From: Tubulanus polymorphus
Taxonomy: Eukaryota; Animalia; Nemertea
Assembly (NCBI RefSeq): GCF_964204645.1
Contig: NC_134030.1
Span: 14,942,110-15,006,109, forward strand
Length of the DNA stretch: 64,000 bases
Reading direction: 5' to 3'
The position numbers were made by a program, and so were the translations under genes. The notes beneath the pieces are model-generated. The model had not been told where the DNA came from. It was given only the letters and a program-made list of their open reading frames with translations, and made no database searches. Below are positions 3,120 through 57,811 of this stretch, in pieces; position 1 is the first letter of the stretch; every line of letters starts with the position of its first letter.

Positions 3120-4422
3120 AGTAATAGGAAATATGTTGTTCTAGATCAAAGGTCGAAAGGTCGAGTGAGTAAAAAATGAAAAAGAAATTCTCGCACACTC
3201 GAATTTATTTTTCATTTTCTACTCACTCAACCTCTCAACCTTTAATCTAGAACAACTTATTCCCTATTTCTCTTAAAATATTCATATTTAAAAAGGTGAG
3301 TAAAGTGTTAGCATAATAATCTAGAAAAATAAGATCAAATATAGATTTCGAATAATAAAAAATAAATTTTCAATATAAAAAGTGTGAGTAAAGTGTGAGT
3401 AAAGTGCAAACATAAAAAGTGTGAGAAAAAGTAACGAGTAATTAACGAGTTGTTAGAATTAAAATCAATTTTTAAACATAAAAAGTGTGAGCAAAGTGTG
3501 ATTGAAATAATTCATATTTAAATCATTGAATATTTATATTTGAATGAGTTTTAATAAAAGTTTTGTTATTAAAATGAAGAAAGAAGAAGAAGAACCCAAC
3601 TTCAAAATCGAAATAAAAGAAACCAATAAATCATTTTCACAGTAACATTAGAAATTATATTTCAGCAACAAATTTAGTGTCCGCAAGACATTATAAAATC
3701 GATAACATAACTATGATTAATCAAATATCATCAAATGAAACATATTTAATTACTGAACTAATTGATACTTTTGATAATGGTGTTAAAAATCCTAAAATAT
3801 TTAATACAGTTTTAAAATTAAAAGGAACTTTAGATGAAAACATAATAAATATTCTTAAAACTCCTTTCAATGGAAGAAAAAGTGATATGATACTTGCTAA
3901 AGATTACAATGATTTGATTAAATTAAGAATTGAAAAAAGACAATTATATTATTTCAATTTTCATAATAAACAAATTATCTATAATGAAAATTCATCAAAT
4001 ATTGGTATTCAATGTGAATTGGATAATGAACAATCATTTAAAGATGTTGCAGTTCAATGTAATTTAGATGATGAATTTAGAAAATTCAATCCTAATGAAA
4101 AAGTGTATTGTTATTGTGGTGGCAAATATTTAAATCACATAAATCAAAACATTATCAGACAATCAAACATATCGAATATGAAAAGAATAATAATTCTATA
4201 TTGAAATAAGATTAAGCTGTATGTTTCAAATATATAGTAGTTAAAGCATTGAGAAATTAGTTAATGAATAACTGTTACGTAGTAAGTTAAATTGTTATTT
4301 GATTTGAAACATATAAAGTTAAATATTCATATTCAAAATAAGATATTTCAAATTATTTTTTTTCACTTTTTACTCACTCGACCTTTCGACCTTTGATCTA
4401 GAACAACATATTCCCTATTACT
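3120..4422. mobile_element. Non-autonomous Polinton-family element A (1303 bp)
   Basis: AGTAATAGG...CCTATTACT termini; 6-bp TSD TACTGG at 3114-3119 and 4423-4428; left terminal hairpin 3120-3271. Confidence 0.92.
3574..4204 (+). pseudogene. Element A cargo ORF (~205 aa family, C-terminal CxC..H..H zinc finger), frameshifted
   Basis: Highly similar to ORFs 53755-54345 and 56284-56931. Confidence 0.75.
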
Positions 4423-6443: not shown

Positions 6444-6955
6444 AGTAATAGGGGTAATGGGCTTTCATACCAAAGGTCGAACGGTCGAGCTCGTAAAAAA
6501 TGAAAATAATAATAATTTACAGTTGAATTAGTCGCGCACACTCCTAATTCAACTGTAAATTATTATTATTTTCATTTTTTACTCACTCGCCCCTTCAACC
6601 TTTGATATGAAAGCCCATTACCCCTATTACTCTTAAAATATTCATATATATATATGAATAACATTTAAATTGACAGATTATTCAATATAAAAGTATATAT
6701 TTACAACATTATTTCAATATTCATATTTGTATGAGTTAGATTTTTAAACATTAAAAGTGTTAGTAAAGTGTGATTGAAATCATGCATGATATAAATCATT
6801 GAACTTCTAAAATCAATTTTAATAAAAAATTTAGTATTAAAATGGAAGCAAATAAGTACTACTGTCCAACATGTAATATCAATATAGATAAATCCCAAAA
6901 ATCAAGACACAATAAAACTAAAACACATTTAGAGAATAAATTGAAACTAGAATAT
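6444..6955 (+). repeat. Left TIR of element B with 188-bp terminal hairpin (6444-6631)
   Basis: Reverse complement of ~22990-23398; extends into the first ~38 codons of pPolB. Confidence 0.9.
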
Positions 6956-9900
6956 GAAGATGATATATTAGAAACTAAATTAGATGAATTAAAGAATGAA
7001 AAGGAAACATACAAATGTGATACATGTAATCAATCATTCAGTGATAAAAGATATTATAAAGAACATTTAAAATCTAAAAGTCATTTTAGAAATAAGAATA
7101 ATGATATTTTAGGTGAAGATTATTTTGATAAAGATAATGATAAGAAACAGAAGACAATTAAAAGCATAAAAAATAAATTAAACAATAAAAGACCATACAT
7201 AGAAGATGTAAGAAATTAATATTAATTCATTAGATAATAAAAAAGAAGTAGAGATAACCGAAGCATTTAAAAGTGATATTGGTCCAGCAGCTATCGAGTT
7301 TAAATTTCATAAAGGAAAAACATTAGAAGAAAATAAAAAACATTTAGAAAATATGAATGAAATAATAAAAATAATAACTGATGTTGAATATCCTAAAATT
7401 AGTATATCAGTTAATGTAAAGTTAATAAAATCTGAAGATAAACCAATATATAATATAAATTCTCATTCACAACATATTATATCTAAACAACATATAGATG
7501 ATAAATGTTATAATGAAGTAAAAACTAAAATAGAAGAGAAATATTTTGAAGGATCTGGTTTAATATTTGATGAAATAATATTTATGACTTTACATGTTTA
7601 TAACACAAAATATAATAAGTTAACTAAATCAAAACCAATTGATGAAAATAATGTATCATATTATAAAGAACCAGATATTGAAGCATCGAGTTATATTGAA
7701 CTACCATTTAAAACTAATGCTGTTATAAATATACAAAATGAAGATGATAAATGTTTTCTATGGGCTATAATAAGTTGTTTACATCCAACAGAAGATATTA
7801 CACATAGTTTTAGATTAACTCATTATAAACCATTTGAAAATAATTATAAGATAGATAAGTATCCTGTCAGAATTAAAAACATCCCAAAGATAGAAAGAGA
7901 TAATAATTTAAGAATAAATGTATTTGATTTAATCAAATTACCAAATACAAAAGGTAACAATATAAAACATTATACATTAGAACCTTTATACCTATCAAAA
8001 GATTATGATTCAAACGATGTTATAGATATATTATATTATGAGAATCATTATATGTGGATTAAACAAATAGATTTATTTTTTAAATCAGAAAATGATCACC
8101 ATAAAATATATCTTTGTAGAAAATGTTTACATCGATTCAGTAATGAAAGTACATTATTAAATCATAAACAATTATGTGATAATCATGATTATTGTAAATT
8201 AGTTTTACCAAATGAAAAAGATAAAATATTAGAATTCAAAAAATATGATTACAAAAATAAAGTTCCATTTGTTATATATGGAGATTTTGAATCATTAAAT
8301 AAAGAACTAACTGATCAAGATAGAAAAGAAATATATTATAAAAGAAAGAAATTAAATTCAAATGAAAATGATTTTTCAGATGACCCACCAAAAACAAATA
8401 CTATTAAAAAGATTCATCAATCAGCTGCAGCTTTCGGGTTATATATAAAATCTGATTATCCAGAACTAATTGAAAGTGAATATTATGATTATAGAAATGA
8501 AAATGTTATCAATCATTTTTGTGACTTATTAATTGAATATGAAATAAGATTTAGTAAATTATTGAATACAAATATAGAAATTATAATGACAGAAGAAGAT
8601 AAAGAAGAATTTGCGTTTGCAGATAAATGTTATTATTGTGAAAAGATATATAATTTTAGAGATAAAAAAGTAAGAGACCATGATCATTTGAATGGAAAGT
8701 TTAGAGGCGCTGCGCATGAGAATTGCAATTTGCAAGCTAGGAAAATTAATTTTGTACCAGTTATATTTCATAATCTATCAGGATATGATGCACATTTATT
8801 TATCAAACAGTTATGCCATAAAATAGAAGAAATTAATAATGAAATAGAAAGATTAAATTCAAATAGATCAAAAGATAAAATACCAACTTATAAATTTAGA
8901 ATGTTAGCTAAAACATCTGAGAATTATATATCATTCCAATTTGGTTGCCTAAGATTTATAGATTCATATAGATTTTTACATAGTTCATTAGATAACTTAT
9001 CAAAATCATTAGTTGATGATGAATTAAAGATATTAAAAGAATATTACCCAAATATTGATGATTTTAAATTAATGAGATATAAAGGTGCAATTCCATATTC
9101 ATTTTATAAATCACATAATGATTTCAATATAACTGAATTATTGAAAGAACAATTTTATGATGAATTAAAAAATGAATATGTTAAAGATGAAGTCTATAAT
9201 AGAACATTGAATATTTGGAATCATTTCAAAATAGAAAATCATGGCCAATTAGTAGATTTATATTTAAAATCAGATGTATTATTATTAACCGATATATTCG
9301 AAAGGTTTAGAGATGTAAACCTAAAATATTTTAATATTGATCCTTGTCATTGTTATTCATCACCAGGTTTAACATGGGATTGTGGATTGAAATTTACAAA
9401 TATAAAAATGGATTTGTTAACAAATATAGATCAATTACTATCATTTGAAAAATCTATAAGAGGAGGAGTTTCAGGTGTATTAGGTGATAGATTCAATGTA
9501 AATGATAACCCTGGATATAAGTTATTATATATAGATGCAAATAATTTGTATGGTTGGGCAATGATGGAACCACAACCTTATGGAGTATTTGAATTAACTG
9601 AAGTTTTACAGAATGAAAATAATGATAAATTTGATTGGAAGAAAAGAATTCTAGATATTGCAGATGATTCAGATACTGGTTACTTTTTTGTTGTAGATTT
9701 AGAATATCCTGAACATATTAAATTTAAATCTAGAAATCTAGCTTACTGTCCCGAACATAAAACTGTAACTCATGAAGAATTATCAAATTATCAAAAAAGA
9801 ATTAAACCCGAAAATCATATTCATACAGAAAAGTTAATGGTATCTCAAGAAGATAAATATAATTATGTAGTACATTATAGAATGTTAAAGTTTTATCTAA

Positions 9901-10867
9901 ACAAGGAATGGTTCTAAAAAAAGTACATAGATATATTTCATTTAGTCAATCTAAGTGGTTAAAAAAATATATAGATTTTAACACCAAACAGAGAACTGAA
10001 GCTAAAACTGATTTCGAGGAAGATTTCTTCAAGTTAATGAATAATGCATTCTATGGTAAGACTTGTGAAAATATTAGAAATAGAAATGATATTGAGTTAG
10101 TCAGTAATGGTAAAAGAATTAGACATTTACAAACATATCCTAAGTTCATTGGTAACAGAATATTTGATGAAAATTTAGCCGCAGTTATGATGAGAAGAAC
10201 ATCAATGAAATTTAATAAACCAATCTATGTTGGCGCTTCAGTTTTAGAATTATCAAAATTACTAATGTATGAATTCTATTATAATATATTACAACCACTT
10301 TTTGGAGAAAAACATATAGAAATATTATATTTTGATACCGATTCTTACATATTAAAGATAAAAACTGATAACATAACTGATGATTTAAAAACATTAAAAC
10401 ATCATTTTGATTTTAGTTATTATCCTAAAGATCAAGAATTGTTTAGCAATGATAATAAAAAAGTTCCCGGTAAATTCAAAGATGAATTAGGTGGTGAAGA
10501 AATGATTGAATTCATCGGTATTAGATCTAAAATGTATTCATATAAAACTAAAGAACATGAAGCTAAAAAGTTAAAAGGAATAACCAAAAGTGTAGTAGAA
10601 AAGAATATTCATTTCAAAGATTACATCAATTGTATATTCAATGAAGAAGTTAGAAAACATAAGATGAGATGTTTAAGATCTGAGTACCACGATATGTTTA
10701 TTGAAGAAATTGAAAAGATAAGTCTAAACCCATTTGATGATTAAAGATATATTTTAGATGATGGAATTCATACAGTTGCTTATGGTTGCAATTTAGATGA
10801 ATACTTAAAATTTAAAAGGGAAGAGACAAAAGATAACGAGATAATGAAAAGAATTCTAACGTGTTAA
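6842..10867 (+). pseudogene. pPolB: Protein-primed family B DNA polymerase with N-terminal zinc fingers, OTU-like region and inserted endonuclease VII-like domain; 2 frameshifts and 1 nonsense codon
   Basis: Exo I YGDFES, Exo II FHNLSGYD, Exo III YLKSDV; Pol A YIDANNLYG, B KLMNNAFYGK, C YFDTDS; C-terminus PFDD*RYILDDGIHTVAYG; pieces are ORFs 6842-7219, 7353-9917 and 9908-10744. Confidence 0.95.
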
Positions 10868-10896
10868 TCAAATTTTAATAAAAATATGTTATTAAA

Positions 10897-11250
10897 ATGG
10901 AGAGTAAACAAGCGCACAGTGAGAAAAACAAATTATTTCTAGATAGAATAAAAGATACTACAAATATAAAATCTGTAGATTATAAATTCAAAAAGTTAAC
11001 AGAATTAACAATCCATAAGAAATATCTAATTACAAATATTGATACAGTTACTAATAACTATGGAGATAAATTAGTTATACACTTAGAATATGAAGGATTA
11101 AAAGGAAATACATATAAATTCAGAACATATTTACCGGATAGATTTCATAGATTATCAAGTGAAGACTTAGAAGAATTATGTTCTGGAGATTTCTATTTCG
11201 TATACAAAGGTAAGAATGAAAAAGGGCACCATGAAATAGATTTCGAATAA
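10897..11250 (+). CDS. Polinton 117-aa protein, possibly an OB-fold ssDNA-binding protein
   Basis: Intact ORF directly after pPolB with the same upstream motif; beta-strand-like pattern; function inferred. Confidence 0.55.
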   Translation: MESKQAHSEKNKLFLDRIKDTTNIKSVDYKFKKLTELTIHKKYLITNIDTVTNNYGDKLVIHLEYEGLKGNTYKFRTYLPDRFHRLSSEDLEELCSGDFYFVYKGKNEKGHHEIDFE

Positions 11251-11267
11251 GAAAATATGTAAAATAA

Positions 11268-12039
11268 ATGGCGGAATTAAAAGAATACAGAAAATTTGTT
11301 GATTCTAGAAGACTTACAAATTATAAATCACATAATTTACTAGTACAATTAGATAGAGAATTTAAGAATTGTGTAGATTTAAAATTAGTTAATATAAGTA
11401 TATATGTAATTCTTTTTACAATATATCGAATAAAACTATTGAACATAGAGCTTTTTTAATTTTTAATAAAAATAAAAATGAATGGGTCTATATATAATTA
11501 AAACCGGGGTTATATAATTTAGATACATTAGCACAAGAAATTAATAGAAAAGCCTGGCACAAATTAGGTAGTAGTTCTGGGTTTAGTATTAGATTTTTAA
11601 AAAGTGAGAGTTCTGATAGAATAAAGATAAGGTTGTCTAATAGTGAAAAACATAAATTTATGGTAAAAAACCTATAGCTAAACTGTTAGGAATTCTTCCA
11701 GATAGATCTTTTACAAATATTGACGCTACTACACAAAACTTAATACCTTACACACATTTTTATATTTATTGCAATTTAATCGATCCTACAAAAACATTCG
11801 AAGCAACTAAAGATATAACTTGTAATTCTGGTTTACTAAACATTTTACCATTGAAGAATGTTAAAGAATTTGGAACGCAAATAAATTATAATTTAACAGA
11901 ATGTGATTTCAAACCATGCATTCCTCGTTTTAATAATTTTAGATTAGAAATTAGAAATAATAATGGATACTTAATTGATTTAAATAATTTCCCATGTAAT
12001 TCCCTGTAATATGAATTAGTTGTTAGATGTAAAGAGTAA
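11268..12039 (+). pseudogene. Minor capsid protein (penton), frameshifted
   Basis: Across frames: FVDS..N..V.L, KLLG, FYIYCNLID, LLNILPL..GTQINY, FRLEIRNNNGYLIDLNNFP; typical Polinton mCP pattern. Confidence 0.7.
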
Positions 12040-12056
12040 TTTTTTTCACTATATAA

Positions 12057-12398
12057 ATGAATATAACTGTTGGACCGAGTATATGTTTTGGGTTTGATTT
12101 TAAACATGGTAAAGAAATGAGAATTAAACTAAATGATGTAATTACTGATATAAAAAGTAAATCATTTAACAATGCATCAATGATTAATAAAGAAAATTAT
12201 AATATAGAAAAAGTAATTGATTTAATTAAATCACCTTTAGAATATTATGAATTAAATGAAGATGGAATTATTGATGATATTAAAAACATATTATCCAAAA
12301 TATATGATAATCATCAAAGTAGTAATGAAATAAATGTTGAATTAATCATCACTAAGATAACTAAATATTTTGATGATAGTAATTTTTTTGATAAATAA
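12057..12398 (+). CDS. Polinton hypothetical protein (113 aa)
   Basis: Intact ORF starting at a T-run/TAAATG motif. Confidence 0.65.
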   Translation: MNITVGPSICFGFDFKHGKEMRIKLNDVITDIKSKSFNNASMINKENYNIEKVIDLIKSPLEYYELNEDGIIDDIKNILSKIYDNHQSSNEINVELIITKITKYFDDSNFFDK

Positions 12399-12620
12399 AT
12401 GAGTGATAATAAGTGGATAATAACTGGATTATATAATGGCGCATTACTATCAGTTGGAACTGTTGGTTATTCAATGGTATTAAAAAAAGTATTCAAAATG
12501 GGAAGTGTTAATGTTGATAGATTTGATATAAATGATATTTTAAAATTAACATTAGCAGTTACTTTATCTAATTTAACTATTGATTATTTGGAAAAACAAA
12601 AATATATTCCTCCCATATAA
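12399..12620 (+). CDS. Small hydrophobic/membrane protein (73 aa)
   Basis: Two hydrophobic or amphipathic segments; TAAATG start. Confidence 0.7.
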   Translation: MSDNKWIITGLYNGALLSVGTVGYSMVLKKVFKMGSVNVDRFDINDILKLTLAVTLSNLTIDYLEKQKYIPPI

Positions 12621-12645
12621 ATGCATAATTTTTTTTGTTAAATAA

Positions 12646-13068
12646 ATGGCTTCTGCAATTATAACTATTATAGGATCGGCAATTGTTAACGCTTTAGCAT
12701 TTACTGGTGGTGGATATTTATTTAAACATATTGATAAAAATAGTTCATTAGGAGAACAAAGAAGACATAACTTAGCATTAGAGAAATACAATAAAGCAGC
12801 GGAAGAATATAGAGAAAAACGACAAAACTATATGGATTATATTAACAAGGAATTATATGATCAGAAGATTTCACATAGAGATTTTCAATCAGTTGATGAT
12901 GCAATGAGTTTATATAACGCGGTAACAAATAAAGAAAAATTACATCTATACAATCCTAAATTATCAGATTATTATACCCCTAGTAAAGAACAACAGAAAT
13001 ATGAAATAATATGGATTTTCGGTGGAACAGTTATTGTTATATTTGTAGCGTATAAATTTACTAATTAG
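12646..13068 (+). CDS. Membrane protein: N-terminal hydrophobic helix, coiled coil, C-terminal TM (140 aa)
   Basis: MASAIITIIGSAIVNALAFTGGGYLF...IIWIFGGTVIVIFVAY. Confidence 0.75.
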   Translation: MASAIITIIGSAIVNALAFTGGGYLFKHIDKNSSLGEQRRHNLALEKYNKAAEEYREKRQNYMDYINKELYDQKISHRDFQSVDDAMSLYNAVTNKEKLHLYNPKLSDYYTPSKEQQKYEIIWIFGGTVIVIFVAYKFTN

Positions 13069-13088
13069 TAATTTTTTTGGCCAAATAA

Positions 13089-13523
13089 ATGGAAGATAAA
13101 GTTGATAATATTGATATTATTCCTCATGATATAAATAAAACTAAATTAAAAACATATTTAGAAAAACAAATATTAGAATTTGAAAGTGACTTAAAGGTAA
13201 AAAAGAAAAAATATTTAAAAAGTAAAATTATATATTATTTGATTATAAGTGGTTCGGTTACAATTAGTTCTGTAATAACATTTCTAGCAATATTCAGTCC
13301 ATTAACACCTTTAGCTATATCAATTGGTGTATTAGGATTAAGTTCAAGTGTTTTAACCGGTATAAGTTCAAAATTAAATATAAAAAGTAATTAAGAAAAA
13401 ATTAAAACTAATATAAAAGAAATTAATAAATTAACGAATACACTAGATTATATAATAAGTTTAAATGGTCATATAACAGTTGAAGAACAAGATAAATTAT
13501 TAAAAGAATTAGTTAATTATTAA
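13089..13523 (+). pseudogene. Two-TM coiled-coil protein with premature stop at 13392
   Basis: Two hydrophobic helices; the frame stays open past TAA (EKIKTNIKEINK...ELVNY*). Confidence 0.65.
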
Positions 13524-13539
13524 TTTTTTAGTTATATAA

Positions 13540-14928
13540 ATGGCAGATAGTTTTCCAAAAGTTTTCCAATATAATAAATCACTTAAATATAATATTCCTG
13601 CAATAGATTTTAATAAAGATATTACATATAGAAATGAAGTTTTAGATTCATTAACTAATCTAGAAATTTATGTCACTGAAACTAATAATTTTAATGCAAA
13701 GATGGAAAATATATTTCATGTATATTTAATTAATTTTAAGAAATTGAAAGATGAAAAACAATGGTTATTAAAATCTAACATGAAGTGTTGGCAGAACCAA
13801 TTAAATTTTGCTGTTTATTGTGCAACAACAGGATGTGGAATTAGTTGGAATGATCATTTGAATAATTCTAAATATAAATTAATTCAAAGTTTATTTAGAT
13901 TTCATACATACTTTCAAATAAGAATAATATTAAATGAATTAGAGTGCGCTTTACCAGGATCTAGATATTTTAAAGAATTAGATAATAATATTAATTTATC
14001 AAAGTTTTATAAAATTTGTAATGAATTTAATATAGATATAAATAATTCTGATTTTAGAACAAAAATTGGAACAATAAGATCACTTCCTTGCCCTAAAAAG
14101 ATTGCAGAATATTGTGCACTTCCCATACCATCTAATAGTTTTTATAATATCTATAGTAATAAATTAGGTTATGGTAAAATAGAAACTAAGGATTTAGAAA
14201 CATTAAATTTCAATAAATTACCGACATTTTATGATAATTTAAAACAAGAAAACAATAATGGTTGGGTTTATTTTATTTTAGAAAATAGTGAAGGTTTTAC
14301 TAAATCAGGTATAGAAAGAATAAATCAATCAATTAGAACTTATTTGATATGTATTTTAGGTGCGCAAGTTGAAACAAGATCCCCAATAATTGGAAATATG
14401 AATACATCATTCGATACACAAAAACAATTTAAAGTTTTATTTGAAGATTCCATACATAATGATAAAAATAGATCGATTCCAGAAAACATTGTAAGATATC
14501 AAAATTATTTAGATAAATCACATATTAGATTAAATTATTGTATAGGTCCTAATCTATTTATTATTTCTAATGATTTAGTATTAAAGATGGGAAACATAAT
14601 TTGTTATAATAATCTAATTAAAACTGCAACAATAAATAATTCATTTGGATTGAATGATATAAATAAAAAGATTATCACTGCTCCAAAATTAATGGAAGGT
14701 GAAAAAAATAAAAAACACATTCAATCAACAGAAACTAAAACTAATAATATCAAATTAAATAATGATTCTAAAATAAAAGATTACAATACATCAGAAGATA
14801 TTAAAACCGATATTATTCAACATGATATAATTAAACTAAATGATGATAATAAATCCCATGAAAATACTAAATTAGCTATAACTTGTATAGGAATTGTAAT
14901 CGGAGGAATATTATATTTTAAAATTTAA
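13540..14928 (+). CDS. Polinton 462-aa protein of unknown function with C-terminal TM anchor
   Basis: Intact ORF; WQNQLNFAVYCATTGCGIS, FRFHTYFQIR; ends LAITCIGIVIGGILYF. Confidence 0.8.
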   Translation: MADSFPKVFQYNKSLKYNIPAIDFNKDITYRNEVLDSLTNLEIYVTETNNFNAKMENIFHVYLINFKKLKDEKQWLLKSNMKCWQNQLNFAVYCATTGCGISWNDHLNNSKYKLIQSLFRFHTYFQIRIILNELECALPGSRYFKELDNNINLSKFYKICNEFNIDINNSDFRTKIGTIRSLPCPKKIAEYCALPIPSNSFYNIYSNKLGYGKIETKDLETLNFNKLPTFYDNLKQENNNGWVYFILENSEGFTKSGIERINQSIRTYLICILGAQVETRSPIIGNMNTSFDTQKQFKVLFEDSIHNDKNRSIPENIVRYQNYLDKSHIRLNYCIGPNLFIISNDLVLKMGNIICYNNLIKTATINNSFGLNDINKKIITAPKLMEGEKNKKHIQSTETKTNNIKLNNDSKIKDYNTSEDIKTDIIQHDIIKLNDDNKSHENTKLAITCIGIVIGGILYFKI

Positions 14929-14944
14929 TTTTTTTATTATATAA

Positions 14945-15681
14945 ATGGATGTAGAATTTGGAGAAGATATTCCATTGGATCCTTTAGATGAACCTGGTAT
15001 AAGTGATGAACAACAACCTGATTTTAGTGAAACAAGTTTTAATGACGGTAATGAGCCAGAATATAATACTAATTTAGGTGAAGATGATGATTATGATGAT
15101 GATTATGATGGTATGAAAGGAGAAAGTTAGCTTTAGAAAAAGAAATAGATGATTTAAAATATAACAAAGAATTACAGGAAAAAGAAAGAGATACATTATT
15201 AAAATCATATGATCTTAATCATATTAAAAAATTGAAAGTTATTTTTAAAGATTTGTTGATAAAACCAGATTCTAAAATATCATTGAAAGATAGAATAAAG
15301 TTATTATTTAAATTAGAAGGAATAACAATTCTTTCAATTTTAACAGCTGTAACTATGTTATTTACAACAATTGGTTTAGCAATATCAAATGCTTTAAAAT
15401 CTTCGCCTACTCCCAATAAACCGGATAAACCCCCAGATAATAATTCTATACAAGATAAAGTTAAAGATGGTTTAAAGAAATTAGCAAAATATTTATGGGA
15501 ACTATCTAAAAAATCTGCTGCAGCTTTACCAGGAATTATTGCATCAATTGTTGGTTTTATATTGAAATCTGCTGGGAATATTCTTAACTTTGCTGCTGAA
15601 CATATTATTTTATTTTTAATTACAGTTGTAAGTGCTATTATTTTTGGGTTAGTGAACATGATATCAAAAAATATCAAGTAA
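14945..15681 (+). pseudogene. Acidic N-terminus, multi-TM protein (broken into ORFs 14945-15130 and 15232-15681)
   Basis: TAAATG start, acidic tract, then hydrophobic helices. Confidence 0.65.
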
Positions 15682-15721
15682 ACATGATAAAAAATAAATA
15701 ATTAATTTTTTTGTTAAATAA

Positions 15722-16969
15722 ATGAGTGGGAGTTATATAAGTCCTTCTAAGATTTCTAGAATATCTAATGCTATTAAAGCAGAAAGATCACATCATATAA
15801 TTACTCATAACCCTTCTAATATCAATCCCGATGAAACTTTATATGTTAGAATTCCTAGATTAACACAAAATACTTTTTATGTTCCAAATAGTATTTATTT
15901 ATCAGCCGATATAAAAGTAATCGGTAATAATAGTAATTATGTTGTTGATAATGTTGGAAGATATTTGATTAAAAAATTAACTATAAAGATTGGTCCAGAA
16001 ACAGTTTTCTCATTAGATGATTATAATTTATTTATGCATTATAAAGATTTATGGTTAACTAAAGAAAATAGAAATAATATGATATTTCAAGGAATCGAAT
16101 CAGAAAACCAAAATAAATTAAGATCTGAAGCCAATAATGCAGTAGTAACTAATGACGTAGATAATTTGATTAAAAAGATTTATGGAAGCAAATATAAAAT
16201 TCCATTAGACTTTGAATTGATAAATAACAATGCGCCTTTATATAAATACGCAATTCAAGAAGACGTTATATTCGAAATAACATTCGCTCCTGTAAATGAA
16301 ATTGTATTATCTAGCGTTAATAAAGATATGAGTTATAAATTATCGAATATATGTTTAGAATATGATACAGTAACTGATGAAAATATTTCAAGTATAATTC
16401 AAACTCAATACAATCAAGGATTTTCATTATTATATGATTATATTGATAAATTTAAAACCGTAACTATTAATGCAAATTATGAAATAATTAATGAGAATAT
16501 TAACTTCCCAAGAAGATCTATTAAAGGTGTATTAATATTTTTTACCATTGCAACATATACTAATGGCGCAATAAATGTTGATAATTATTATAATCCTGAA
16601 ATAACAAAAGTAGAAATAACTATCGAAGGAATAGCAAATAAAATATTTTGTCAAGGAATGAGAATGATAGATCAATGGCCAGAAATTATAAAACATTTTA
16701 TGAATGAAAAAGTAAAATCATTTGAAAATTGTAATATTAATCAAATTGATTATTATACCGGTAATAAATATGCATTATGGTTAGATTTTAGAACAACAGA
16801 GGATAATTCATTACATGGTTCTGGAAAAAAATTACAAAATACAAAAGATGGAATACAATTATTCATGACAAAGAAAAGAGGAGACAAAAATTTCAAAATG
16901 CACATTTATATTATATCTGACGCGCAATTAAATATTGTAAATTCTCAATTAAATAGTGTTATGTATTAA
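15722..16969 (+). CDS. Major capsid protein (double jelly-roll, inferred)
   Basis: Intact 415-aa beta-rich ORF; THNPSNI..LYVRIP..VVDNVGRYLIKKL..YKDLWL..NICLEYD..LWLDFRT..LHGSG; position and size fit a Polinton MCP. Confidence 0.8.
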   Translation: MSGSYISPSKISRISNAIKAERSHHIITHNPSNINPDETLYVRIPRLTQNTFYVPNSIYLSADIKVIGNNSNYVVDNVGRYLIKKLTIKIGPETVFSLDDYNLFMHYKDLWLTKENRNNMIFQGIESENQNKLRSEANNAVVTNDVDNLIKKIYGSKYKIPLDFELINNNAPLYKYAIQEDVIFEITFAPVNEIVLSSVNKDMSYKLSNICLEYDTVTDENISSIIQTQYNQGFSLLYDYIDKFKTVTINANYEIINENINFPRRSIKGVLIFFTIATYTNGAINVDNYYNPEITKVEITIEGIANKIFCQGMRMIDQWPEIIKHFMNEKVKSFENCNINQIDYYTGNKYALWLDFRTTEDNSLHGSGKKLQNTKDGIQLFMTKKRGDKNFKMHIYIISDAQLNIVNSQLNSVMY

Positions 16970-17001
16970 AACTTTAACTTTAATAAATATTTATTATATA
17001 A

Positions 17002-17823
17002 ATGGAAGGAGGTAAAGTATATAAACATATTCCATACATCGATACACATGAAAATAATGATGGTTTTTATTATGTAATACCTTGTAATATAGCTTTGATA
17101 TTTGATCCTATTTTCAAAATTTATAAAACTAAACTAATAGAAATCGATAATAATAAAAGTGAAGTTGTTGATAATTTAAGTAATGTAATTGATAATAATG
17201 TAATGCCTACTACAGTAATACCTACTACATCTAATAATGTAATACCTTCTACATCTAATAATGCAATAATATTAAATGTTAGTGAAAATAGAAATTATTG
17301 TGATTATTGTAAAGATGAATATTCAAACGCTCCATCAAATTGGAATAAACATATGAATACAAATTCACATATTACTAATGTTATAGAACGTGTTCGTTTA
17401 AAAGAATTTATAGAACACCCATTTAGATATGTTACAAAATTTGTTTCAAATAAAAAAGTAAATGGTAAAGAATTATATGAAGATTTTTTATTAGCAACAC
17501 CTAATAAAGATGAATTAGATTTAACTGATGCTAATGAAATATTAGGATCAAACACTGTAAATGAAATATTAGGAGCAAACACTAATAAAGATTCTATGAA
17601 ACATAAAGTAGAAAATAATGATAAATTTGATTGGATGAATAAGCATAACAATGAAACAACTATTGATGATTCGGTAAAAAAGGTGAAAAATAAGTATAAA
17701 AATAATAGAGAATTTGAAGAAGAAAATTCGGTAGAGAATTTGAGAAAATTGTTAGGGTCTGATAATGAATTGGAGAGTGATGATGAAAGTGATTCAGAAA
17801 GTAATTATCTAACAATCAAATAA
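17002..17823 (+). CDS. Hypothetical protein with C2H2 zinc finger and acidic tail (273 aa)
   Basis: CDYC..WNKHMNTNSH; TAAATG start. Confidence 0.7.
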   Translation: MEGGKVYKHIPYIDTHENNDGFYYVIPCNIALIFDPIFKIYKTKLIEIDNNKSEVVDNLSNVIDNNVMPTTVIPTTSNNVIPSTSNNAIILNVSENRNYCDYCKDEYSNAPSNWNKHMNTNSHITNVIERVRLKEFIEHPFRYVTKFVSNKKVNGKELYEDFLLATPNKDELDLTDANEILGSNTVNEILGANTNKDSMKHKVENNDKFDWMNKHNNETTIDDSVKKVKNKYKNNREFEEENSVENLRKLLGSDNELESDDESDSESNYLTIK

Positions 17824-18189
17824 TAATAAAGGTTGAAAATTGTATAAAATAATAGTAAATAAAAAAGGGGGTTTTAAGTATTAAGGTATCTAATACATAT
17901 ATAATACGTATTTAATACATATCTAATACATATCTAATACATATTATTTGAAAATACCTTAAATTATATTTCTTTTTTAAATTTATGTTGAAACCTCAGT
18001 AATAATAAATAACCTTTATTATTTTCAAACTTATTCATATATTAGTTGAAATAATAAAAATAAATTGGTTGAAAATTGTATAAATAATATTTATTTTAAA
18101 AAAGGGGGTTTTAAGTATTTAAGGTATCTAATAGGGTATCAGGTATTGGGGTATCTAATAGGGTATCTAATACATAGGTATATAAATAG

Positions 18190-18801
18190 TTATTTCATAA
18201 ATTTATATTCATATGGAAATTGTAATCTCAGTAATAATTTTGAACCTTTATTATTCTTTAATTAATTCATATATTCATCATATAATTCAGTAGGTATAAT
18301 TTGATTTTCTTCCAATGATTGTTGCATAGATTTTCTATCTTTATTGTAGAATAAAACTAGAAATCTTATATTCTCCCTAAAGTCTTTAACAATTGCATTA
18401 TATTTTTGATTTAAAACCCATGTTGTTATCCCAAAATGTCTTCCAGAGAAAGCTAAATAACATAACTCACTTTCTCTCACTTTTGATTCATGTAAATTTG
18501 CGCAATCATCTATAATGAATAATGTATTTGATCCTTTATAAGTATCAATTGCTATTTTAATACAATTATCTAAATTTTCTTTTACTGTTTTAGGATCTAA
18601 TATAATAAACTTTTTCATCTTAACTATATCTCTATTATATGTTTTATTCATTTCATAAGTAGGACAGAATAATATTATATTATCAAAATGATTCTTATAA
18701 ATAGTTTCTAACAAGTCTAATATGAAATGTGTTTTACCACAGTTTGTTACTCCAGTAACTAACATGTTATGAGGATCAAATATAAATAAATCTTTATTCA
18801 T
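18190..18801 (-). pseudogene. A32/FtsK-like packaging ATPase with nonsense codon at 18262
   Basis: Walker A GVTNCGKT, Walker B FIIDD, GRH motif; the frame continues about 23 codons past TAA. Confidence 0.9.
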
Positions 18802-19890
18802 TTATTCTTTTAATTTTACTAGATAAAATCCATTCATTAAATTTATCATCGTATCCTTTATATTTCACCAAAGAATACTTTTTTCCTTTAAGAGTTTTGT
18901 TTTCAATACTTTTTCTATTTTGTATTCTATTTCATCTGGATTTGGTACAAGTGATAATTCGTGTTCATAGAAATAACCTAATATTTCTTCATCTTTTAGA
19001 TCTTCTAATTTATAAACAAATGGTTTAGTTAATATTATCTTTTTAATCTTAAATATTTCTTCAGTAAAATTTGGAGTATAACCTTTATAAAATGTTTTTC
19101 TATATTTAGATATTCTTACGTGTTGTCCTATTTTAAATTTAGGTTCACCGAAATCATGTGTAACAAACGCTCCATATAAATTATTCCAAACTATTTCCGA
19201 ATTATCTTCTTTTCTAGCTTGTATAGGTTTTATATTTATAGAACTATGTTTAGAATTATTATAACCTTTCACTAAATCATCTTACATATTTATAGACTCA
19301 TCGATATATTTATATGTTTCATTAGCAGTAAAATATTTCCACATTCTAGTTTTCAATGTTTTATTAAATCTTTCTATAATAGATGCTTTTTTATCTGAGT
19401 GTGTTGAAAAATAATCTACATCGTTATCAGATAATAGTTTTTTGAAATGTTTGTTATAGAATTCCTTACCTTCATCAAATTGTATCTTATCTGGAATAGC
19501 TTCTTTAAATATAGATTTAAAAGCATTTGTCACTTCTATACCAGTTTTATTTTTGATTGGAATTGACCATGCGTATTGACTGAATATGTCTATAACATTC
19601 AGTATCCAGAAATATCCTTTGTTGTATTCCTCTAAGTTCTTCATGTCAATTAAATCTGCTTGCCATTGTTGATCGATATATGAAACCATAACTTTTCTTG
19701 TTAAATAAGTTTTATCCATTTTCTTGTGGATTTGATATGTTGGTTGATTTTGTAACCATGATTTTAATTCGCTATATTTTATACCACCATTATCAGATTT
19801 AATTTTATTCCATAATTCTGAAACGGTAGAATATGATACTTCACTTTCTGGGTTATAATATAAATCTCTTAAATATTATTCTTTTTTCAT
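18798..19890 (-). pseudogene. Retroviral-like (rve) integrase with C-terminal chromodomain, disrupted
   Basis: LYYNP, QADLID, QFDEGKEF, IERFNKTLK, YNNSKHSSI, FKIGQHVRISK, YKIEKVLK..LVKYKGY..FNEW. Confidence 0.92.
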
Positions 19891-20379
19891 CTTATTTTAA
19901 TCCATTAATAATAATTTAGATTTAGTTTCAATGGTTTTATGATTTGACTTATTTTCTGGTATAATAGGTTTATTGTCTGTACACGGATAACTAAGTTTCC
20001 GATTTTCATTGGAATCATCTTTATCATCAGATTTGAATTTTGATTTATATATTACACCGGATAATATAATAACTGTGATTAACCCAATTGTAATATATAA
20101 TTTATAATTACTTCCAGCATTAGAAGAATCAGATGGATTATCATTCGAATCAATATCAGATAATTTCTGTGATTCATTTTTATCAGTTTATTTCTTTTTC
20201 TTAGCTTTTTTTAATTCTAAAGATCTTTTACCTAATTCTCTTGCCCATTTAATTTGTTTCTCTATATCAGTTAATTTCTTTTTCTTAGCTTTTTTTAATT
20301 CTGAAGATCTTTTACCTAATTCTCTTGCCCATTTAATTTGTTTCTCAGATCTAGCCTTTTTCTTAACTCCATCACTCAT
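19890..20379 (-). pseudogene. Basic repeat protein with downstream TM segment (frameshifted)
   Basis: Duplicated EKQIKWARELGKRS.ELKKAKKK unit; IYITIGLITVIILSGVIY in an adjacent frame. Confidence 0.55.
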
Positions 20380-20966
20380 TTATTTTAGTTAATTTTTGTT
20401 CTGATTCATTTTCTGTTTCGACGTTTGGTTGTAGTACATCTGTTTCGTTCTTACCTGATTTATATTCCATAGGTTTGATGTTCGAAAATGTTATGACACC
20501 AGTAGAAATTAATGTCATAACCGATCCTAATTGAAATGAAGCATAACCAACCCATTTTTGTAATTCAGTCATAACTAAGTAGTCATTTTTCAAATCACTA
20601 TATAATTTATTTTCATCATCAATTGGTATTAACTGGTTACATAACTTAGAATAACATTTGACAATACCATCACTTATAGAGTCGTTTATTCTAGCTAATC
20701 TTGACTCTTCATAAATCTTAAAATATTTTATTACTTTATCTGGTTTCATAGAGTCTAGTTCTTGAAAAGTAATGATTCTATTTAAAAACTCATTAACCGG
20801 CAATCAATAGTTCTATATGGTGCTTACAATATAAATAGTATTCATAATCTATATTGTTATTAACTTGAATAAAATTAGAAACAACTGTATCTTTATTATC
20901 ACTAATACCTAAATCATCTAATGTCTTTTCAATATCAATACTATTCTTACTCGATTTCTTTGACAT
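20372..20966 (-). pseudogene. Hypothetical protein with C-terminal hydrophobic segment (frameshifted 5' part)
   Basis: ORF 20372-20803 plus an upstream TAAATG start at 20966. Confidence 0.6.
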
Positions 20967-22016
20967 TTATATTAGAGAAATTTAATAAGAAAAATATTAT
21001 AAGTATTATAAAATGATACTAGCTAGTTAAAACTAAAGAATTCTAGTATTGACTACTGATACTAGCTATTTGAGTTTAAAGAATTTCTATTCGGATCTAT
21101 TCAAAATATAAAGTATTCTCTTTTGAAAAGAAAGTATTAGAAATATAATAGAATTCACTAACTAGTTGAAGTTATTGTTTTTTAAATACTTTTTATTTAA
21201 ATTAGGATTTAGATTATCTAACTACTATTGTCTATCTATTAGGAGCAGTAATTATAACTGTCCAGATAAGTCATTTCGGATTCTCGATAATAAATCCTAA
21301 AACTGAAAATAAATTCAAAGAAACGACTGTTGGAAATACTATTTCATAAACACACGTATATTTTATTCTACAATCATTATCGATTTCCACATTCCAAGCC
21401 GCTCCAGAGAGGAGCGGTAAGGTATGCGTGGAATGCAGGAATCAATAAAATACAATACAACATCTGTCACTGTGCGACATTAACAACAGCTTAATGACGC
21501 AATTGACATTCCGACAAACGTAATGCATTGAAAGCCTATACAGTATGGCTAAACTGCTACAGTCTCATGAGTTGAAATATCCATTATTTCTGATTCCACA
21601 TCCATCGATCTTCACTTTCTTGATTCAATAGTCTTCATTTAGTTATCTAAAAGATAAATATCTAGCGTAGAATAAAACTAACTTGAAGTTGTAGTTGTAA
21701 AATATTAATTACAACACTTAAACATGACCATTTTGTGGCGCATCTTACCAGGATAAGTTTTACATGTTTAGCGTTTTCCAACGCCTTAATAACAACAAAA
21801 ACAGTACTTACATTTATAACTGTAAACTCCTAAAATTGTGTTTATAGAGAGAATATCCTATACGTTTCTATGCTTATGTGCTGCGCGTTTATAACTGCCA
21901 GTTATTCACTAGCTAAACACTGTCTGGTGCAACAGATGTTCCTTTGTTTTTTTATGATTAATCCTTTTCAACTGAAATAGCACAATCGATCAATATTCAA
22001 ATGAGGTGCGCCCCAT

Positions 22017-22775
22017 TCAACTGAATATGAAATACGGCACAGATGTTTTTGTAAACAACCTAATACAATTACATACAGGCGGTTTGACATAGATCGAGAG
22101 AAACCGGTTTTCTAAGCGTTTAACATCAACGTATTTTTCATTATGTGTTGAGTTCCATAATTCAACAAATGTCTTTGCTTTATCCAGTTGATCTAAATAT
22201 AACTGTAAATCTAGTTTATTAGATTTAATTATGTTTTCCTTCTTTTCTAAAGGCCTTAAATTTCTCCAACCCCAAATAAGTTTTTTTTTGTATTCATCAT
22301 TCATGTTAAATTTAGAAATCGGCAACACGTGATCAATATGAAAGTATTCACCATAATCATCTATATTCATTTTATCATCGAATTGATATATTATCCATGA
22401 TTTTAAGAATTCATCTGTACAACCCAATAAATAAGATAGTGTTTCTGAATGTGTTTCTTTGTTGAATAATTGTGTTAATCTAGATCTTAAGCATTGTTTC
22501 AATCTAAAATTAATATCTGTTTGATATCTTTCTCTCATATATTCTGTCATATAATCATTATAAGCTTCTCTATTATCCTCTCGGTATTGTTTGGTATATA
22601 GTTTAAAACAAGTTTTACAGCAATATTGAAAACCATCTTTGCTAATCTTACGCTTACTAAATTCTGTTAAAGCTAATTTATCTAATTCACATTTAGAACA
22701 CTTCTTGCAATATATATTTATAACACCAGCAGTGTTATTTGTAATATTGATAATTTGTGGTTGTTCTGGTTCCAT
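22017..22775 (-). CDS. HNH endonuclease with N-terminal zinc finger, large-DNA-virus type
   Basis: CSKC..F.K...DG...CKTC; LLGCT; FHIDHVLP..NLRPL...EN..KSNK. Confidence 0.8.
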   Translation of the reverse strand: MEPEQPQIINITNNTAGVINIYCKKCSKCELDKLALTEFSKRKISKDGFQYCCKTCFKLYTKQYREDNREAYNDYMTEYMRERYQTDINFRLKQCLRSRLTQLFNKETHSETLSYLLGCTDEFLKSWIIYQFDDKMNIDDYGEYFHIDHVLPISKFNMNDEYKKKLIWGWRNLRPLEKKENIIKSNKLDLQLYLDQLDKAKTFVELWNSTHNEKYVDVKRLENRFLSIYVKPPVCNCIRLFTKTSVPYFIFS

Positions 22776-22852
22776 TTATTATATGTATTTTTTACTAAAT
22801 TGGTTAATATTTTAGAATCCTCTTCCATTTCTTCGACCAACGTCATCCTTTT

Positions 22853-23104
22853 TCATTCCTCGCTGCTTTTGATAAGTTGTTTCGATTCCTTGATATCAAA
22901 TTCCTCAACGTATTGTTCATTATTTGGATCATTATTCCATAATTCAATAAATTTCTTTGCCTTTGTTAACTGTTCTGAATATAACTGTAAATATTCTAGT
23001 TTCAATTTATTCTCTAAATGTGTTTTAGTTTTATTGTGTCTTGATTTTTGGGATTTATCTATATTGATATTACATGTTGGACAGTAGTACTTATTTGCTT
23101 CCAT
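22853..23104 (-). CDS. Chimeric 83-aa ORF: pPolB N-terminal zinc finger joined to an HNH-like tail
   Basis: First 38 aa identical to ORF 6842; the tail resembles the C-terminus of ORF 22017-22775. Confidence 0.55.
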   Translation of the reverse strand: MEANKYYCPTCNINIDKSQKSRHNKTKTHLENKLKLEYLQLYSEQLTKAKKFIELWNNDPNNEQYVEEFDIKESKQLIKSSEE

Positions 23105-23398
23105 TTTAATACTAAATTTTTTTATTAAAATTGATTTTAGAAGTTCAATGATTTATATCATGCATTATTTCAATCACACTTTACTAACACTTTTAATGTT
23201 TAAAAATCTAACTCTATATATATATATGAATATTTTAAGAGTAATAGGGGTAATGGGCTTTCATATCAAAGGTTGAAGGGGCGAGTGAGTAAAAAATGAA
23301 AATAATAATAATTTACAGTTGAATTAGGAGTGTGCGCGACTAATTCAACTGTAAATTATTATTATTTTAATTTTTTACGAGCTCGACCGTTCGACCTT
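22990..23398 (-). repeat. Right TIR of element B (terminal ~29 bp and an internal ~78 bp missing)
   Basis: Near-exact inverted copy of the left TIR, including the hairpin from 23240. Confidence 0.9.
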
Positions 23399-52580: not shown

Positions 52581-53754
52581 ATATAGCTGCAAGCAGCGAT
52601 AACGGGTTTCTGCCTTTCTGGATAGAATGTCGTTCAGGGATGCGAGCAAAGATTTCACCCGAAATCAGTTCGTTACATTCCGTTTTTGAAAGAGCGCCAC
52701 CTAGGGGTCAACTCCCAACATGGATATGTCGACCCACATGTGCTACTACGCGCAAAGTACTAATGTGCCAGGTTTTGGGGGAAATAACATCGAGAAGAAG
52801 GAAGCTAAGGTGTTTTTACCATTCCCTAGTGACAGTTCAAGCGCATATTCGATTATAATTAGTTCCGAAAAAAGTCGACATTATGAGAAAACCGAATTTG
52901 GCCCAAAGCACAAATTTGGCCTATAGGGTAAACTATGCAGGAGGGAAGGCCTTATAGTGTTACTATTAGTAGAGGAGTGACAAGTCAGTCTGACAAGTCA
53001 AGCGATCAGATGGGGACTGCAATTCACATATGAAATTGACGTCCAATAACCATTATAAAAACATAATCACGAACGGTACCATCACTCCCCATTACTTACT
53101 GTCACTGGTCTCTGGCTAGCAATCATTCTTTATCGGTGCAGTGGGTAGGTATTTTCACCTGACTTTGTTCTTCTATGACATTACCATCTACGCTGCGTCA
53201 CGATGTGATGTACATGTACAAGAGACATCCAATTTGTAATGTATGTAATGTATAAACTGACATTAGACCGTTTAATATCGACGATAACAAGGTATCACCG
53301 ACGCTGACATTTTCTGACGCTAACTAGTATGACCCATACATTAAAAAATGAAAAATATGAAAATAATAACAATTTCTACTTGAATTAGGAGTGAAACTCA
53401 TAAAAAATGAAAAATAATTCTCACACACTCGAATTTATTTTTCATTTTTACTCGCTAGAAAAAAGTGTGAGTAAAGTGTGAGTGAAATAAATTCGAGCGT
53501 GTGAGAATTATTTTTCATTTTTTATGAGTTTCACTCCTAATTCAAGTAGAAATTGTTATTATTTTCATATTTTTCATTTTTTAATGAACTCGACCATTCA
53601 ACCTTTAACCTGAAAGCCCATTACCCCTATTACTCTTAAATTATTCATATACATGAATAAAATATATATGAATAACATATAATTTGATAGATTATTCAAT
53701 ATAAAAGTGTGAGTGAAATAATTCATATTTAAAACATTGAATATTTATATTTGA

Positions 53755-54404
53755 ATGAGTTTTAATAAAAATTTTGTTATAAAAATGAAGAAAGAAGAAG
53801 AAGAACCCAACTTTAAAATCGAAATCAATGAAACCAATAAATCATTTTCACAGTTTAACATTAAAGATTATATTTCAGCAACAAATTTAGTGTCCGCAAG
53901 ACATTATAAAATCGATAACATAACTATGATTAATCAAATATCATCAAATGAAACATATTTAATTACTGAACTAGTAGATACTTTTGATAATGGCGTTAAA
54001 AATCCTAAAATATTCAATACAGTTTTAAATTTTAAAGGATCTTTAGATGAAAACATAATTAATATTCTTAAAACTCCTTTCAATGAAAGAAATGATGATA
54101 TAATACTTTCAAAAGATTACAATGATTTGATTAACTTAAGAATTGAAAAAAGACAATTATATTATTTCAATTTTGATAATAAACAAATTATCTATAATGA
54201 AAATTCATCAAATATTGGAATTCAATGTGAATTCGATAATGAAAAATCATTTAAAGATATTGCAGTTCAATGTAATTTAGATGATGAATTTAGAAAATTC
54301 AATCCTAATGAAAAAGTGCATTGTTATTGCGGAGGTAAATATTGAAAATCACATAAATCAAAGCATTATGAAACAATTAAACATAAAAACTGGTGTAAAG
54401 AGTA
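53755..54404 (+). pseudogene. Cargo ORF, left copy (nonsense codon at 54343)
   Basis: Near-identical to 56284-56931. Confidence 0.8.
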
Positions 54405-54589
54405 ACAATTCTACATTATAATTATTGAATTGAGTTAAATGATTTAAATATCTAATAGACTGTTAAAAGGATAAATTGTTTGACAGTTGAAATGATAAAT
54501 TGTTTGACAGTTGAAATGATAAATTGTTTGACAGTTGAAATGATAAATTGTTTGACAGTTAAAATGATAAATTGTTTGACAGTTGAAAT

Positions 54590-54724
54590 GCTCAATTTTA
54601 TATTTTCATTAATCAAATCCTTACTGATATTTTCATAATAAAAGAAAAGCGCAGCCAATATTAATCCGCCTGCTACTAAATAATGTTTCAAATCACTTTT
54701 CCCAGTTGGGATGAAACCATCCAT
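54590..54724 (-). pseudogene. 5' fragment of a small TM-protein gene running into the repeats
   Basis: T-run + ATAAATG start; MDGFIPTGKSDLKHYLVAGGLILAALFFYY. Confidence 0.55.
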
Positions 54725-54847
54725 TTATTTAAGAGAAAAATTAAACAGTTTATAAAATATTTGCTAGTTTTTAATTAAATATTTTATAATCATTTTAAAA
54801 ATATTAAACTTTTAAATGATTAAATCAAATAACAATTAAATTTACAG

Positions 54848-56230: not shown

Positions 56231-56283
56231 CTATTAGATATTTAAATCATTTAACTCAATTCAATAATTATAATGTAGAATTG

Positions 56284-56931: not shown

Positions 56932-57811
56932 TCAAATATAAATATTCAATGTTTTAAATATGAATTATTTCACTCACACTTTTATATTGAATAATCTATC
57001 AATTTATATGTTATTCATATATATTTTATTCATGTATATGAATATTTTAAGAGTAATAGGGGTAATGGGCTTTCAGGTTAAAGGTTGAATGGTCGAGTTC
57101 ATTAAAAAATGAAAAATATGAAAATAATAACAATTTCTACTTGAATTAGGAGTGAAACTCATAAAAAATGAAAAATAATTCTAACACGCTCGAATTTATT
57201 TCACTCACACTTTACTCACACTTTTTTCTTGCGAGTAAAAATGAAAAATAAATTCGAGTGTGTGAGAATTATTTTTCATTTTTTATGAGTTTCGCGACTA
57301 ATTCAAGTAGAAATTTCTATTATTTTCATATTTTTCATTTTTTATGAGCTCCACCCTTCGACCTTTGGCCTGAAAGCCCATTACCCCTATTACTTCTGTG
57401 CAACTGCGTTAATAAGAGGGCAGATTGTTCCAAAAAGTTGGAGCAGCCGAAGCAAAAGCTCTTTATATTATTATATAGCACTATTGTCTACTTTTCTTAA
57501 CTGCATTTATGCAATTGAATCTGCGGGGAGAAGAATGATTTGAAATTAATACAAGGAGGGTTGAGATATTGAGCTTTTGCATGTTTATTCAAAGTGTTTT
57601 TCAACTTCAAGTTATCTTATCTCTATGATTTTAGCTGTTCTTTCATATTTCCATATAGATTTGAAACGATTTAAAAACCTTTCACCTATCAATTAATTAC
57701 AAACATATTACATTAGAATGGTTTAAGTGCAACTATCATCTTTTCGGAGAGATGCTATGGAACGATTGTTGTATATATGGTTTTTTGTATGTTATTCAGA
57801 TTTTATTTCAG

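Follow-up and report, generated by a model that had tools for sequence, protein, structure and literature searches.

Imperfect fold-back termini of fixed orientation in a Polinton family and in distantly related Polinton lineages

Group-2 (pPolB2) Polintons encode a pPolB polymerase with terminal-protein and viral OTU (vOTU) domains and a nuclease insert, an RVE integrase and an A32 ATPase, and they end in terminal inverted repeats (TIRs) with an AGT-type motif and a 6-bp target duplication. The family described here (elements A to D) shares these features and differs from group-2 Polintons as published in that the outer 90–343 nt of the TIR form a fold-back with a fixed asymmetry. We know of no demonstrated mechanism for Polinton excision or for the start of Polinton replication. 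In the working model, as cited in the accessible text of a preprint on Halocafeteria virophages (bioRxiv 10.64898/2026.07.28.741278), two distant TIRs pair into a racket. The same text reports palindromes within TIRs, beside the target duplication, in four Halocafeteria virophage subtypes and one PLV subtype (the drawn example is 52 nt long), and proposes hairpin priming for elements with mostly non-pPolB replication genes. Terminal palindromes are thus already known in this virus group from the part of the preprint available; a preliminary description of this locus had contrasted its hairpin ends with the simple TIRs with which Polintons are modelled. An (AGT)2 end motif close to that of the present family is given in the accessible text of Barreat and Katzourakis 2021 (PMC8097293).

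The window, by which we mean the whole 64-kb stretch of DNA that was analysed, contains these elements together with the features collected in Table 1. Every fold-back that had been placed in it was recovered at its coordinates: the five full hairpins reach −35 to −129 kcal/mol with DNA energy parameters, the two partial ones −38 and −111 kcal/mol, and all seven have z scores of −11.8 to −27.3 against 100 dinucleotide shuffles each. In the predicted folds, the terminal fold-back provides a paired 3′-OH with template beyond it. The outer arm reads AAAGGTCG in all seven outer arms that reach nt 35 (B right begins one base into the motif) and the inner arm reads AAAGGTTG in all seven inner arms; orientation is fixed, with every outer and every inner arm of one type, and this also holds in the reads. 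The single mismatch near nt 35 that had been proposed as common to the elements turned out to be one of several, clustered at nt 27–52, and the asymmetry between the arms is conserved. The CACACTC motif assigned to the loops is present, but it is not invariant (reads also carry CACGCTC, CAAACTC and CAAGCTC) and in C it folds within the stem.

Five of the eight ends are complete and three are not. At the right end of A there is an outer arm alone and no hairpin, C left lacks its outer ~48 nt, and B right, described at the outset as the mirror of the left hairpin from position 23240, does fold back there but without its outermost bases (Table 1). In A and D the 6-bp target duplication abuts the outer arm on its outside, from which it follows that the outer tip is the integrated end; these two elements have the AG..CT ends and 6-bp duplication of Polinton-type TIRs. 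No target duplication was seen for B and C, each of which has one truncated end. Additional local fold-backs lie outside the Polinton elements at 25998–26107, 29923–30121 and 30171–30427. Within the outer arm, a stretch at 3146–3163 and 6471–6487 repeats AGGTCG, which we take to resemble nuclear-receptor half-sites; by analogy, a host-factor site there would be a counterpart of the auxiliary region in the adenovirus origin.

Table 1 Coordinates of elements, fold-backs and genes in the window, with the terminal fold-backs of outside lineages
Feature	Position	Strand	Remarks
Element A, non-autonomous	3120..4422		152-nt left fold-back; right outer arm only; duplication TACTGG
A left fold-back	3120..3271		Full
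Element B, 17-kb Polinton	6444..23398		TIRs roughly 510 nt; inserted in Pao/BEL retrotransposon
B left fold-back, 188 nt	6444..6631	+	Full; outer arm first; asymmetry cluster nt 27–52
B right fold-back	23240..23398	−	Partial; outer 29 nt missing; orientation as at left end
Element C, non-autonomous	53339..57394 (start approximate)		343-nt nested right fold-back; left truncated
C left fold-back	53336..53636		Partial
C right fold-back	57052..57394		Full
Element D, non-autonomous	58963..59932		90/91-nt fold-backs at both ends; duplication CATATT
D fold-backs	58963..59052 and 59842..59932		Full
Further family end	63969..64000	+	Start only; cut by the window edge
pPolB gene of B, three pieces	6842..10744	+	Frameshifts near 7218 and 9900
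Candidate double jelly-roll capsid gene	15722..16969	+	Lead only; Atlas feature score 0.97
A32-like packaging ATPase	18262..18801	−	PF04665, E = 3.6 × 10−12
RVE integrase, two pieces	18865..19875	−	PF00665, E = 4.7 × 10−9
Possible stand-alone HNH-like nuclease gene	22017..22775	−	Adjoins right TIR; faint HNH_4 match, E = 0.33; motif by eye
Outside lineage L157			129-nt fold-back at one end; endonuclease-VII-type polymerase, about 31–44% alike
Outside lineage L237	291–15427		Complete, 15.1 kb, 6-bp duplication; 174 nt at both ends, same orientation; Vsr-like insert
Outside lineage L236			286-nt fold-back at one end; HNH insert in polymerase, E = 0.0027
Outside lineage L148/L224			159 nt at both ends, same orientation; ACACAC-type tips; endonuclease-VII-type polymerase

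That these elements form a real Polinton family, as first described, is borne out by the polymerase, RVE integrase and A32-like ATPase found in B and by the TIRs and 6-bp duplications. The polymerase comprises zinc fingers, a terminal-protein-like domain with a GSG motif, a vOTU domain, an exonuclease with an endonuclease-VII insert (Pfam PF02945, E = 3 × 10−5) and a palm. B likely also encodes a double jelly-roll capsid protein, to judge from the candidate gene, whose product is 35% alike to its homologue in the outside lineage L237; the Atlas clusters behind its feature score hold capsid families in only 10–24% of their members, and it has no Pfam match. No adenain-type protease was found in the element by Pfam on the scanned ORFs or by tblastn with the protease domain of another locus (L139), and no HUH family (Rep/NS1 type) among the element ORFs scanned by Pfam, which covered short ORFs in part. 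The zinc-finger and HNH-like ORF beside the right TIR of B is another candidate nuclease for the ends. Between TIRs of about 1.25 kb, C contains a long 24-bp tandem array (54458–56230) in which a few units on the left are inverted.

The neighbouring sequence consists of Pao/BEL retrotransposon pieces, and A and B both lie inside them (2354–6443, 23399–24100). Across B, the retrotransposon sequence breaks off at the reverse transcriptase and resumes shortly ahead of the integrase zinc domain; some host sequence therefore probably went missing together with the 29 terminal bases of B. A 662-aa ORF on the reverse strand (43911–45899) matches the Baculovirus F protein (PF12259, E = 2 × 10−11) and is probably the envelope gene of an LTR element.

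Intact relatives of the B polymerase are 1,319–1,365 aa long and 73–76% identical to it, and named relatives include insects, a coral and a mollusc. We modelled the first 563 residues of the longest B polymerase piece from a 68-sequence alignment (pLDDT 82). In the model, residues 22–135 resemble the Y-polymerase little-finger (LF/PAD) fold (Z = 8.7, rmsd 2.9, 103 residues aligned), residues 145–288 viral OTU proteases (Z = 7.5, rmsd 3.8, 110 aligned) and residues 454–510 a beta-beta-alpha-metal (Me) nuclease (Z = 6.3, rmsd 2.0, 56 aligned), Z values that are middling taken alone. A Foldseek structure search returned no match at E = 0.001 or below, and the vOTU residues C181 and H279 are invariant in all 68 alignment rows. 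The first two of these fold matches are the same two that define the terminal-protein and vOTU domains in the accessible text of Krupovic 2024 (bioRxiv 10.1101/2024.03.18.585575), where protein priming is assigned to that pair. The protein-priming machinery is thus predicted to be intact in the family, with the copy in B itself frameshifted, and since both domains are retained, the hairpins would accompany protein priming rather than replace it.

We followed the B left end through raw reads labelled as the same species (X6). The analysis covered about 12% of this run, and the reads represent integrated copies only. Depth is about 3,590 at nt 7–16 compared to about 16 in the flank, a roughly 220-fold excess, and about 2,620 reads leave the sequence just before the tip (2,296 before 6444, and 324). 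Flank agreement at the outer tip is just 0.34–0.36, and the family must therefore occupy many insertion sites. Whereas flip/flop isomers or solo hairpins predict host flanks at the inner tip (6631), no host-flank class occurs there among the six classes listed (smallest 317 reads; 121 further, 6 dropped at a repeat), and any flop class may be minor, below 317 reads if the classes are ranked by support. The likeness to poxvirus and AAV ends that had been drawn at the outset is weakened by this result. About 80–85% of inner-arm reads continue into internal sequence, by arithmetic on bin depths. At the inner arm, depth reaches about 38% of the outer-arm value. A full hairpin may therefore be missing from many ends, though mapping and library bias against fold-backs could also explain the figure. 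Joints within reads also reveal shorter hairpins cut at mirror positions, such as 6506/6569, 6509/6566 and 6479/6596.

Two trivial origins of the structure were rejected. An assembly artefact is at odds with arms that differ at fixed sites, duplications that flank the tips and raw reads, from a study other than that of the contig runs, that cross the loops. A solo hairpin MITE inserted at the ends is at odds with the lack of a host-flank class among those listed for the inner tip and with arms that differ by subfamily.

Comparing one outer and one inner arm from each of A to D, we found 5/104 differences within elements at nt 1–26 and 42/156, 39/156 and 81/312 between elements (about 26%), in agreement with the initial observation that both arms change together. 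At nt 27–36 the relation is reversed, with 8/40 differences within elements against 3/60 between outer arms, and over nt 27–52 the reversal fades (21/93 within compared to 28/123 between outer arms). Among the read variants, 10 of the 17 outer-arm positions listed have a mirror variant, which is complementary in nine of the ten (unphased, from 40 of 107 entries). The left outer arm of C carries inner-arm sequence at three sites where its right outer arm differs, which at the sequence level is direct evidence of copying from arm to arm. With such copying seen, covariation needs no selection for pairing; copying between the arms is the better reading of it, ahead of compensatory changes kept by selection. 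The feature that needs an explanation is the short stretch, nt 27–36, that copying has spared.

We searched by alignment for related polymerases, scanned the 28 viral and 72 genome loci so found for fold-backs and drew on 51 further stretches; the survey was drawn with an alignment of nuclease-type polymerases, and nuclease-free Polintons lie outside the sample. Ends could be placed in five outside lineages, whereas L123, L145, L220, L222, L223 and most of the 100 loci count neither way. Four of the five have a terminal fold-back (z −10.5 to −30.9; Table 1), so the feature is not special to this family; L283 is a second version of the L148/L224 type with other arms. In all four, the stem pairs perfectly over its first 18–29 bp. 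An outer C then faces an inner T at nt 29 in L237, nt 30 in L236 and nt 24 in L157, as at nt 27–28 and 35 in the window; the first 60 bp of L237 contain just one mismatch, a G.T on the 3′ strand, and L148 has a one-base bulge at nt 20 in place of the C/T pair. A nuclease lies inside the polymerase in all five lineages with a placeable hairpin end (window included). The Vsr-like label of the L237 insert comes from one weak NCBIfam match (TIGR00632 Vsr, E = 0.028) and from Jeong 2023, and neither solved structures nor the Atlas yielded a useful match to the insert.

One multi-copy family, G007 (L293 2900–9426; ends at L303 8002 and L306 3887), shows no terminal fold-back (z −1.5 to −2.0). Its TIRs are 540 nt long and contain 53-bp tandem repeats, and it carries a terminal-protein motif and an endonuclease-VII motif that looks intact; it is atypical in its ragged TG or GG ends, with no duplication in the one copy checked. 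Its polymerase gene is in exon-like pieces, and its vOTU region seems to be without the catalytic cysteine.

At L139 a single 184-nt fold-back (4657–4840) links the integrase end to the polymerase start and reflects either an assembly collapse or a true junction of the kind that a circle would have; one ORF of this locus (2740–4251), read by eye, fuses an adenain-like protease, an RVE integrase and a chromodomain-like tail. A 499-nt fold-back at L285 (16868–17366), with AGTAGTAGGG tips and 73-bp arms, lies 3.4 kb from capsid gene remnants and is probably another decayed Polinton end. Pattern scans of metagenome contigs gave 116 matches, none of which folds back (best score 23, compared to 50–66 for five full window ends) and which we judged to be chance. 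Scans of viral contigs gave 3 matches without a fold-back of at least 80 nt and 15 matches of which none is a hairpin, and searches for loci with single proteins found none. Altogether, the end structure is real, conserved and apparently widespread in group-2 Polintons.

L148 and L237, from one assembly, share integrase at 84%, ATPase at 86% and capsid at 92%, with 89–99% nucleotide identity over large central blocks, whereas their polymerases are about 22–24% alike and their hairpins are unrelated. At the sequence level, the comparison of L237 with L224 3805–L148 9383 is a clean swap of the replication module, Vsr-type with AGTAGT tips against endonuclease-VII-type with ACACAC tips, and in this one natural pair the hairpin sequence appears to follow the polymerase and not the integrase or capsid. 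L148 also contains a tandem duplication of about 4.7 kb (11500–21000; the C-terminal half of the polymerase plus the integrase), which is real or an assembly error.

Our preferred reading, to which we give slightly less than an even chance, is that the imperfect, fixed-orientation fold-back acts as a local replication origin on single strands and carries a polarity mark. Once a strand is displaced or set free, its 3′ end would anneal to the inner arm 90–340 nt away and so rebuild a duplex origin for terminal-protein priming, with no need of the other end 17 kb off. The polymerase would trim and refill the paired 3′ end, and through template switching in the stem one arm would be copied from the other; such copying would account for the joint changes of nt 1–26 and the inner stem and for the symmetric growth and shrinkage of the loops. 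The difference at nt 27–36 would survive as the polarity mark. In duplex DNA it would distinguish the two arms, outer and inner; in single strands it would distinguish a 3′-end hairpin (G.T) from a 5′-end one (C.A), a role comparable to that of the bubble in the left-end hairpin of minute virus of mice (MVM). What has been observed in favour of the model is the structure itself with its fixed polarity, the use of the outer tip as the integrated end, the retention of the priming domains, arm copying and recurrence in distant lineages. An origin-type role, which had been proposed from the start, gains support from the retained terminal-protein-like and vOTU domains and from the hairpin following the polymerase, an argument drawn from one element pair (L148/L237). 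The local origin has to prevent simple extension of the paired 3′-OH into the template beyond, and against it stand A right, which has no inner arm and yet a perfect duplication, the lower depth of inner arms (about 38% of outer) and G007, which is of endonuclease-VII type with a terminal-protein motif and has no fold-back.

The geometry that offers a paired 3′-OH with template beyond would suit an unlikely alternative, in which the folded 3′ end primes itself, the polymerase-fused nuclease resolves the hairpin or dimer junction asymmetrically and the terminal protein only patches the end. All five hairpin lineages carry a polymerase nuclease (endonuclease VII, Vsr-like or HNH), and the left end of C resembles a product of fold-back extension. 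Vsr nicks T.G mismatches, the substrate class to which the sole G.T in the first 60 bp of L237 belongs, and endonuclease VII cuts junctions and mismatches. The nuclease inserts are catalytically conserved and are given no function in the accessible text of Jeong 2023 (10.1101/2023.08.22.554363), and a mismatch combined with a fixed orientation is what the MVM left end shows, going by the available part of PMC1185569. Simple nick-and-transfer at the mismatch was rejected on paper, since its products would be an inverted end and a lost mismatch, neither of which is seen; G007 has an endonuclease-VII motif without a hairpin, the bulge of L148 replaces the C/T pair, and the association with nucleases comes from a sample drawn with a nuclease-type alignment, outside which nuclease-free Polintons lie. 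In its full form, which we also regard as improbable, group-2 Polintons would use a hybrid route undescribed for any virus, combining a 3′ fold-back, an asymmetric cut by the fused nuclease and patching by the terminal protein, with endonuclease VII, Vsr and HNH domains recruited three times to read a G.T on the 3′ strand 24–35 nt from the tip.

Strands are released through end hairpins in IS200/IS605 elements, and there is a smaller chance that the fold-back is likewise a release signal, its stem base at the element–host junction letting the integrase or a structure-specific nuclease free one strand, with the mismatch selecting which. The stem base is indeed the terminus beside the duplication, near-identical integrases accept unrelated hairpins, as would fit recognition of shape, and the one-sided terminal losses of B and C suggest cutting there; however, shape recognition leaves unexplained why the hairpin changes with the polymerase, ordinary fragility of palindromes would also cause such losses, and A, one of whose ends is plain, still has a perfect duplication. 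Lower again we place the chance that hairpins are tolerated, functionless by-products of fold-back or template-switch errors at linear ends. Their four-fold length range, freely varying loops, visible arm-to-arm copying and the ends and one family that do without them speak for this, but the same architecture recurs with unrelated arm sequences in polymerases 22–44% alike, and copying perfects the flanks while sparing nt 27–36, whereas a neutral process would end in perfect palindromes. The least supported of the roles suggested initially, and one we think very improbable, is a packaging or maturation signal in the style of vaccinia telomeres, whose mismatches are needed for maturation and whose structure outweighs sequence (accessible text of PMC8956199). 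An A32-like ATPase is present, yet poxvirus ends are closed flip/flop pairs, whereas orientation is fixed here, and a duplex genome with protein-capped ends would hide the fold. The proposed roles of origin, self-priming, release and packaging are not mutually exclusive.

A local asymmetric fold-back provides a defined short DNA substrate and named domains, which makes these readings testable with oligonucleotides and isolated domains, and it gives the nuclease inserts of group-2 polymerases a first candidate function. If the hybrid route were true, it would account both for the nuclease inserts of pPolB2 and for the exit of Polintons from the chromosome. Such ends may have been overlooked as fold-backs can stop or collapse short-read contigs, as possibly at L139, and as TIR finders compare the left with the right end and never an end with itself.

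The word 'hairpin' is absent from the main texts, supplements aside, of Krupovic 2024 in its bioRxiv version (the PMC version has one occurrence), Jeong 2023, Starrett 2021 and Barreat 2021. In the portions of the literature accessible to us, bidnavirus repeats are said not to form hairpins and Barth 2024 mentions only poxvirus hairpins; the 'hairpins' of a Bamfordvirae preprint, considered as a precedent, are protein beta-hairpins. Among the texts compared, we found no precedent for such ends alongside an intact priming apparatus, nor for their fixed polarity, their spared mismatch or their link to the polymerase module; Kapitonov and Jurka 2006, Pritham 2007 or Repbase entries may describe ends of this kind.

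The Halocafeteria virophages and PLVs are alike in having TIR palindromes next to the target duplication, and from what the accessible text of that preprint gives, the fold-backs of the window differ in being longer, in occurring with a terminal-protein-bearing pPolB and in their conserved arm asymmetry and polarity. Poxvirus, asfarvirus and AAV ends are likewise AT-rich imperfect hairpins accompanied by a nuclease of junction-resolving type, but they occur as flip and flop isomers, whereas no such class was seen here among integrated copies. The Tap/Tpg telomeres of Streptomyces also combine a terminal protein with palindromes that fold in single-stranded DNA (PMC2993542, accessible text); they have several short palindromes and an internal origin, in contrast to the one long fold-back and self-encoded pPolB of the window family. 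At the MVM left-end telomere, also an imperfect hairpin, the mismatch makes one arm the active origin and resolution is asymmetric, according to the accessible part of PMC1185569. Whereas MVM uses the HUH nickase NS1 and a single-stranded genome and the window family has a terminal protein, with no HUH family among the ORFs scanned, the left-end trait of a conserved mismatch in a single fixed orientation is present here as well.
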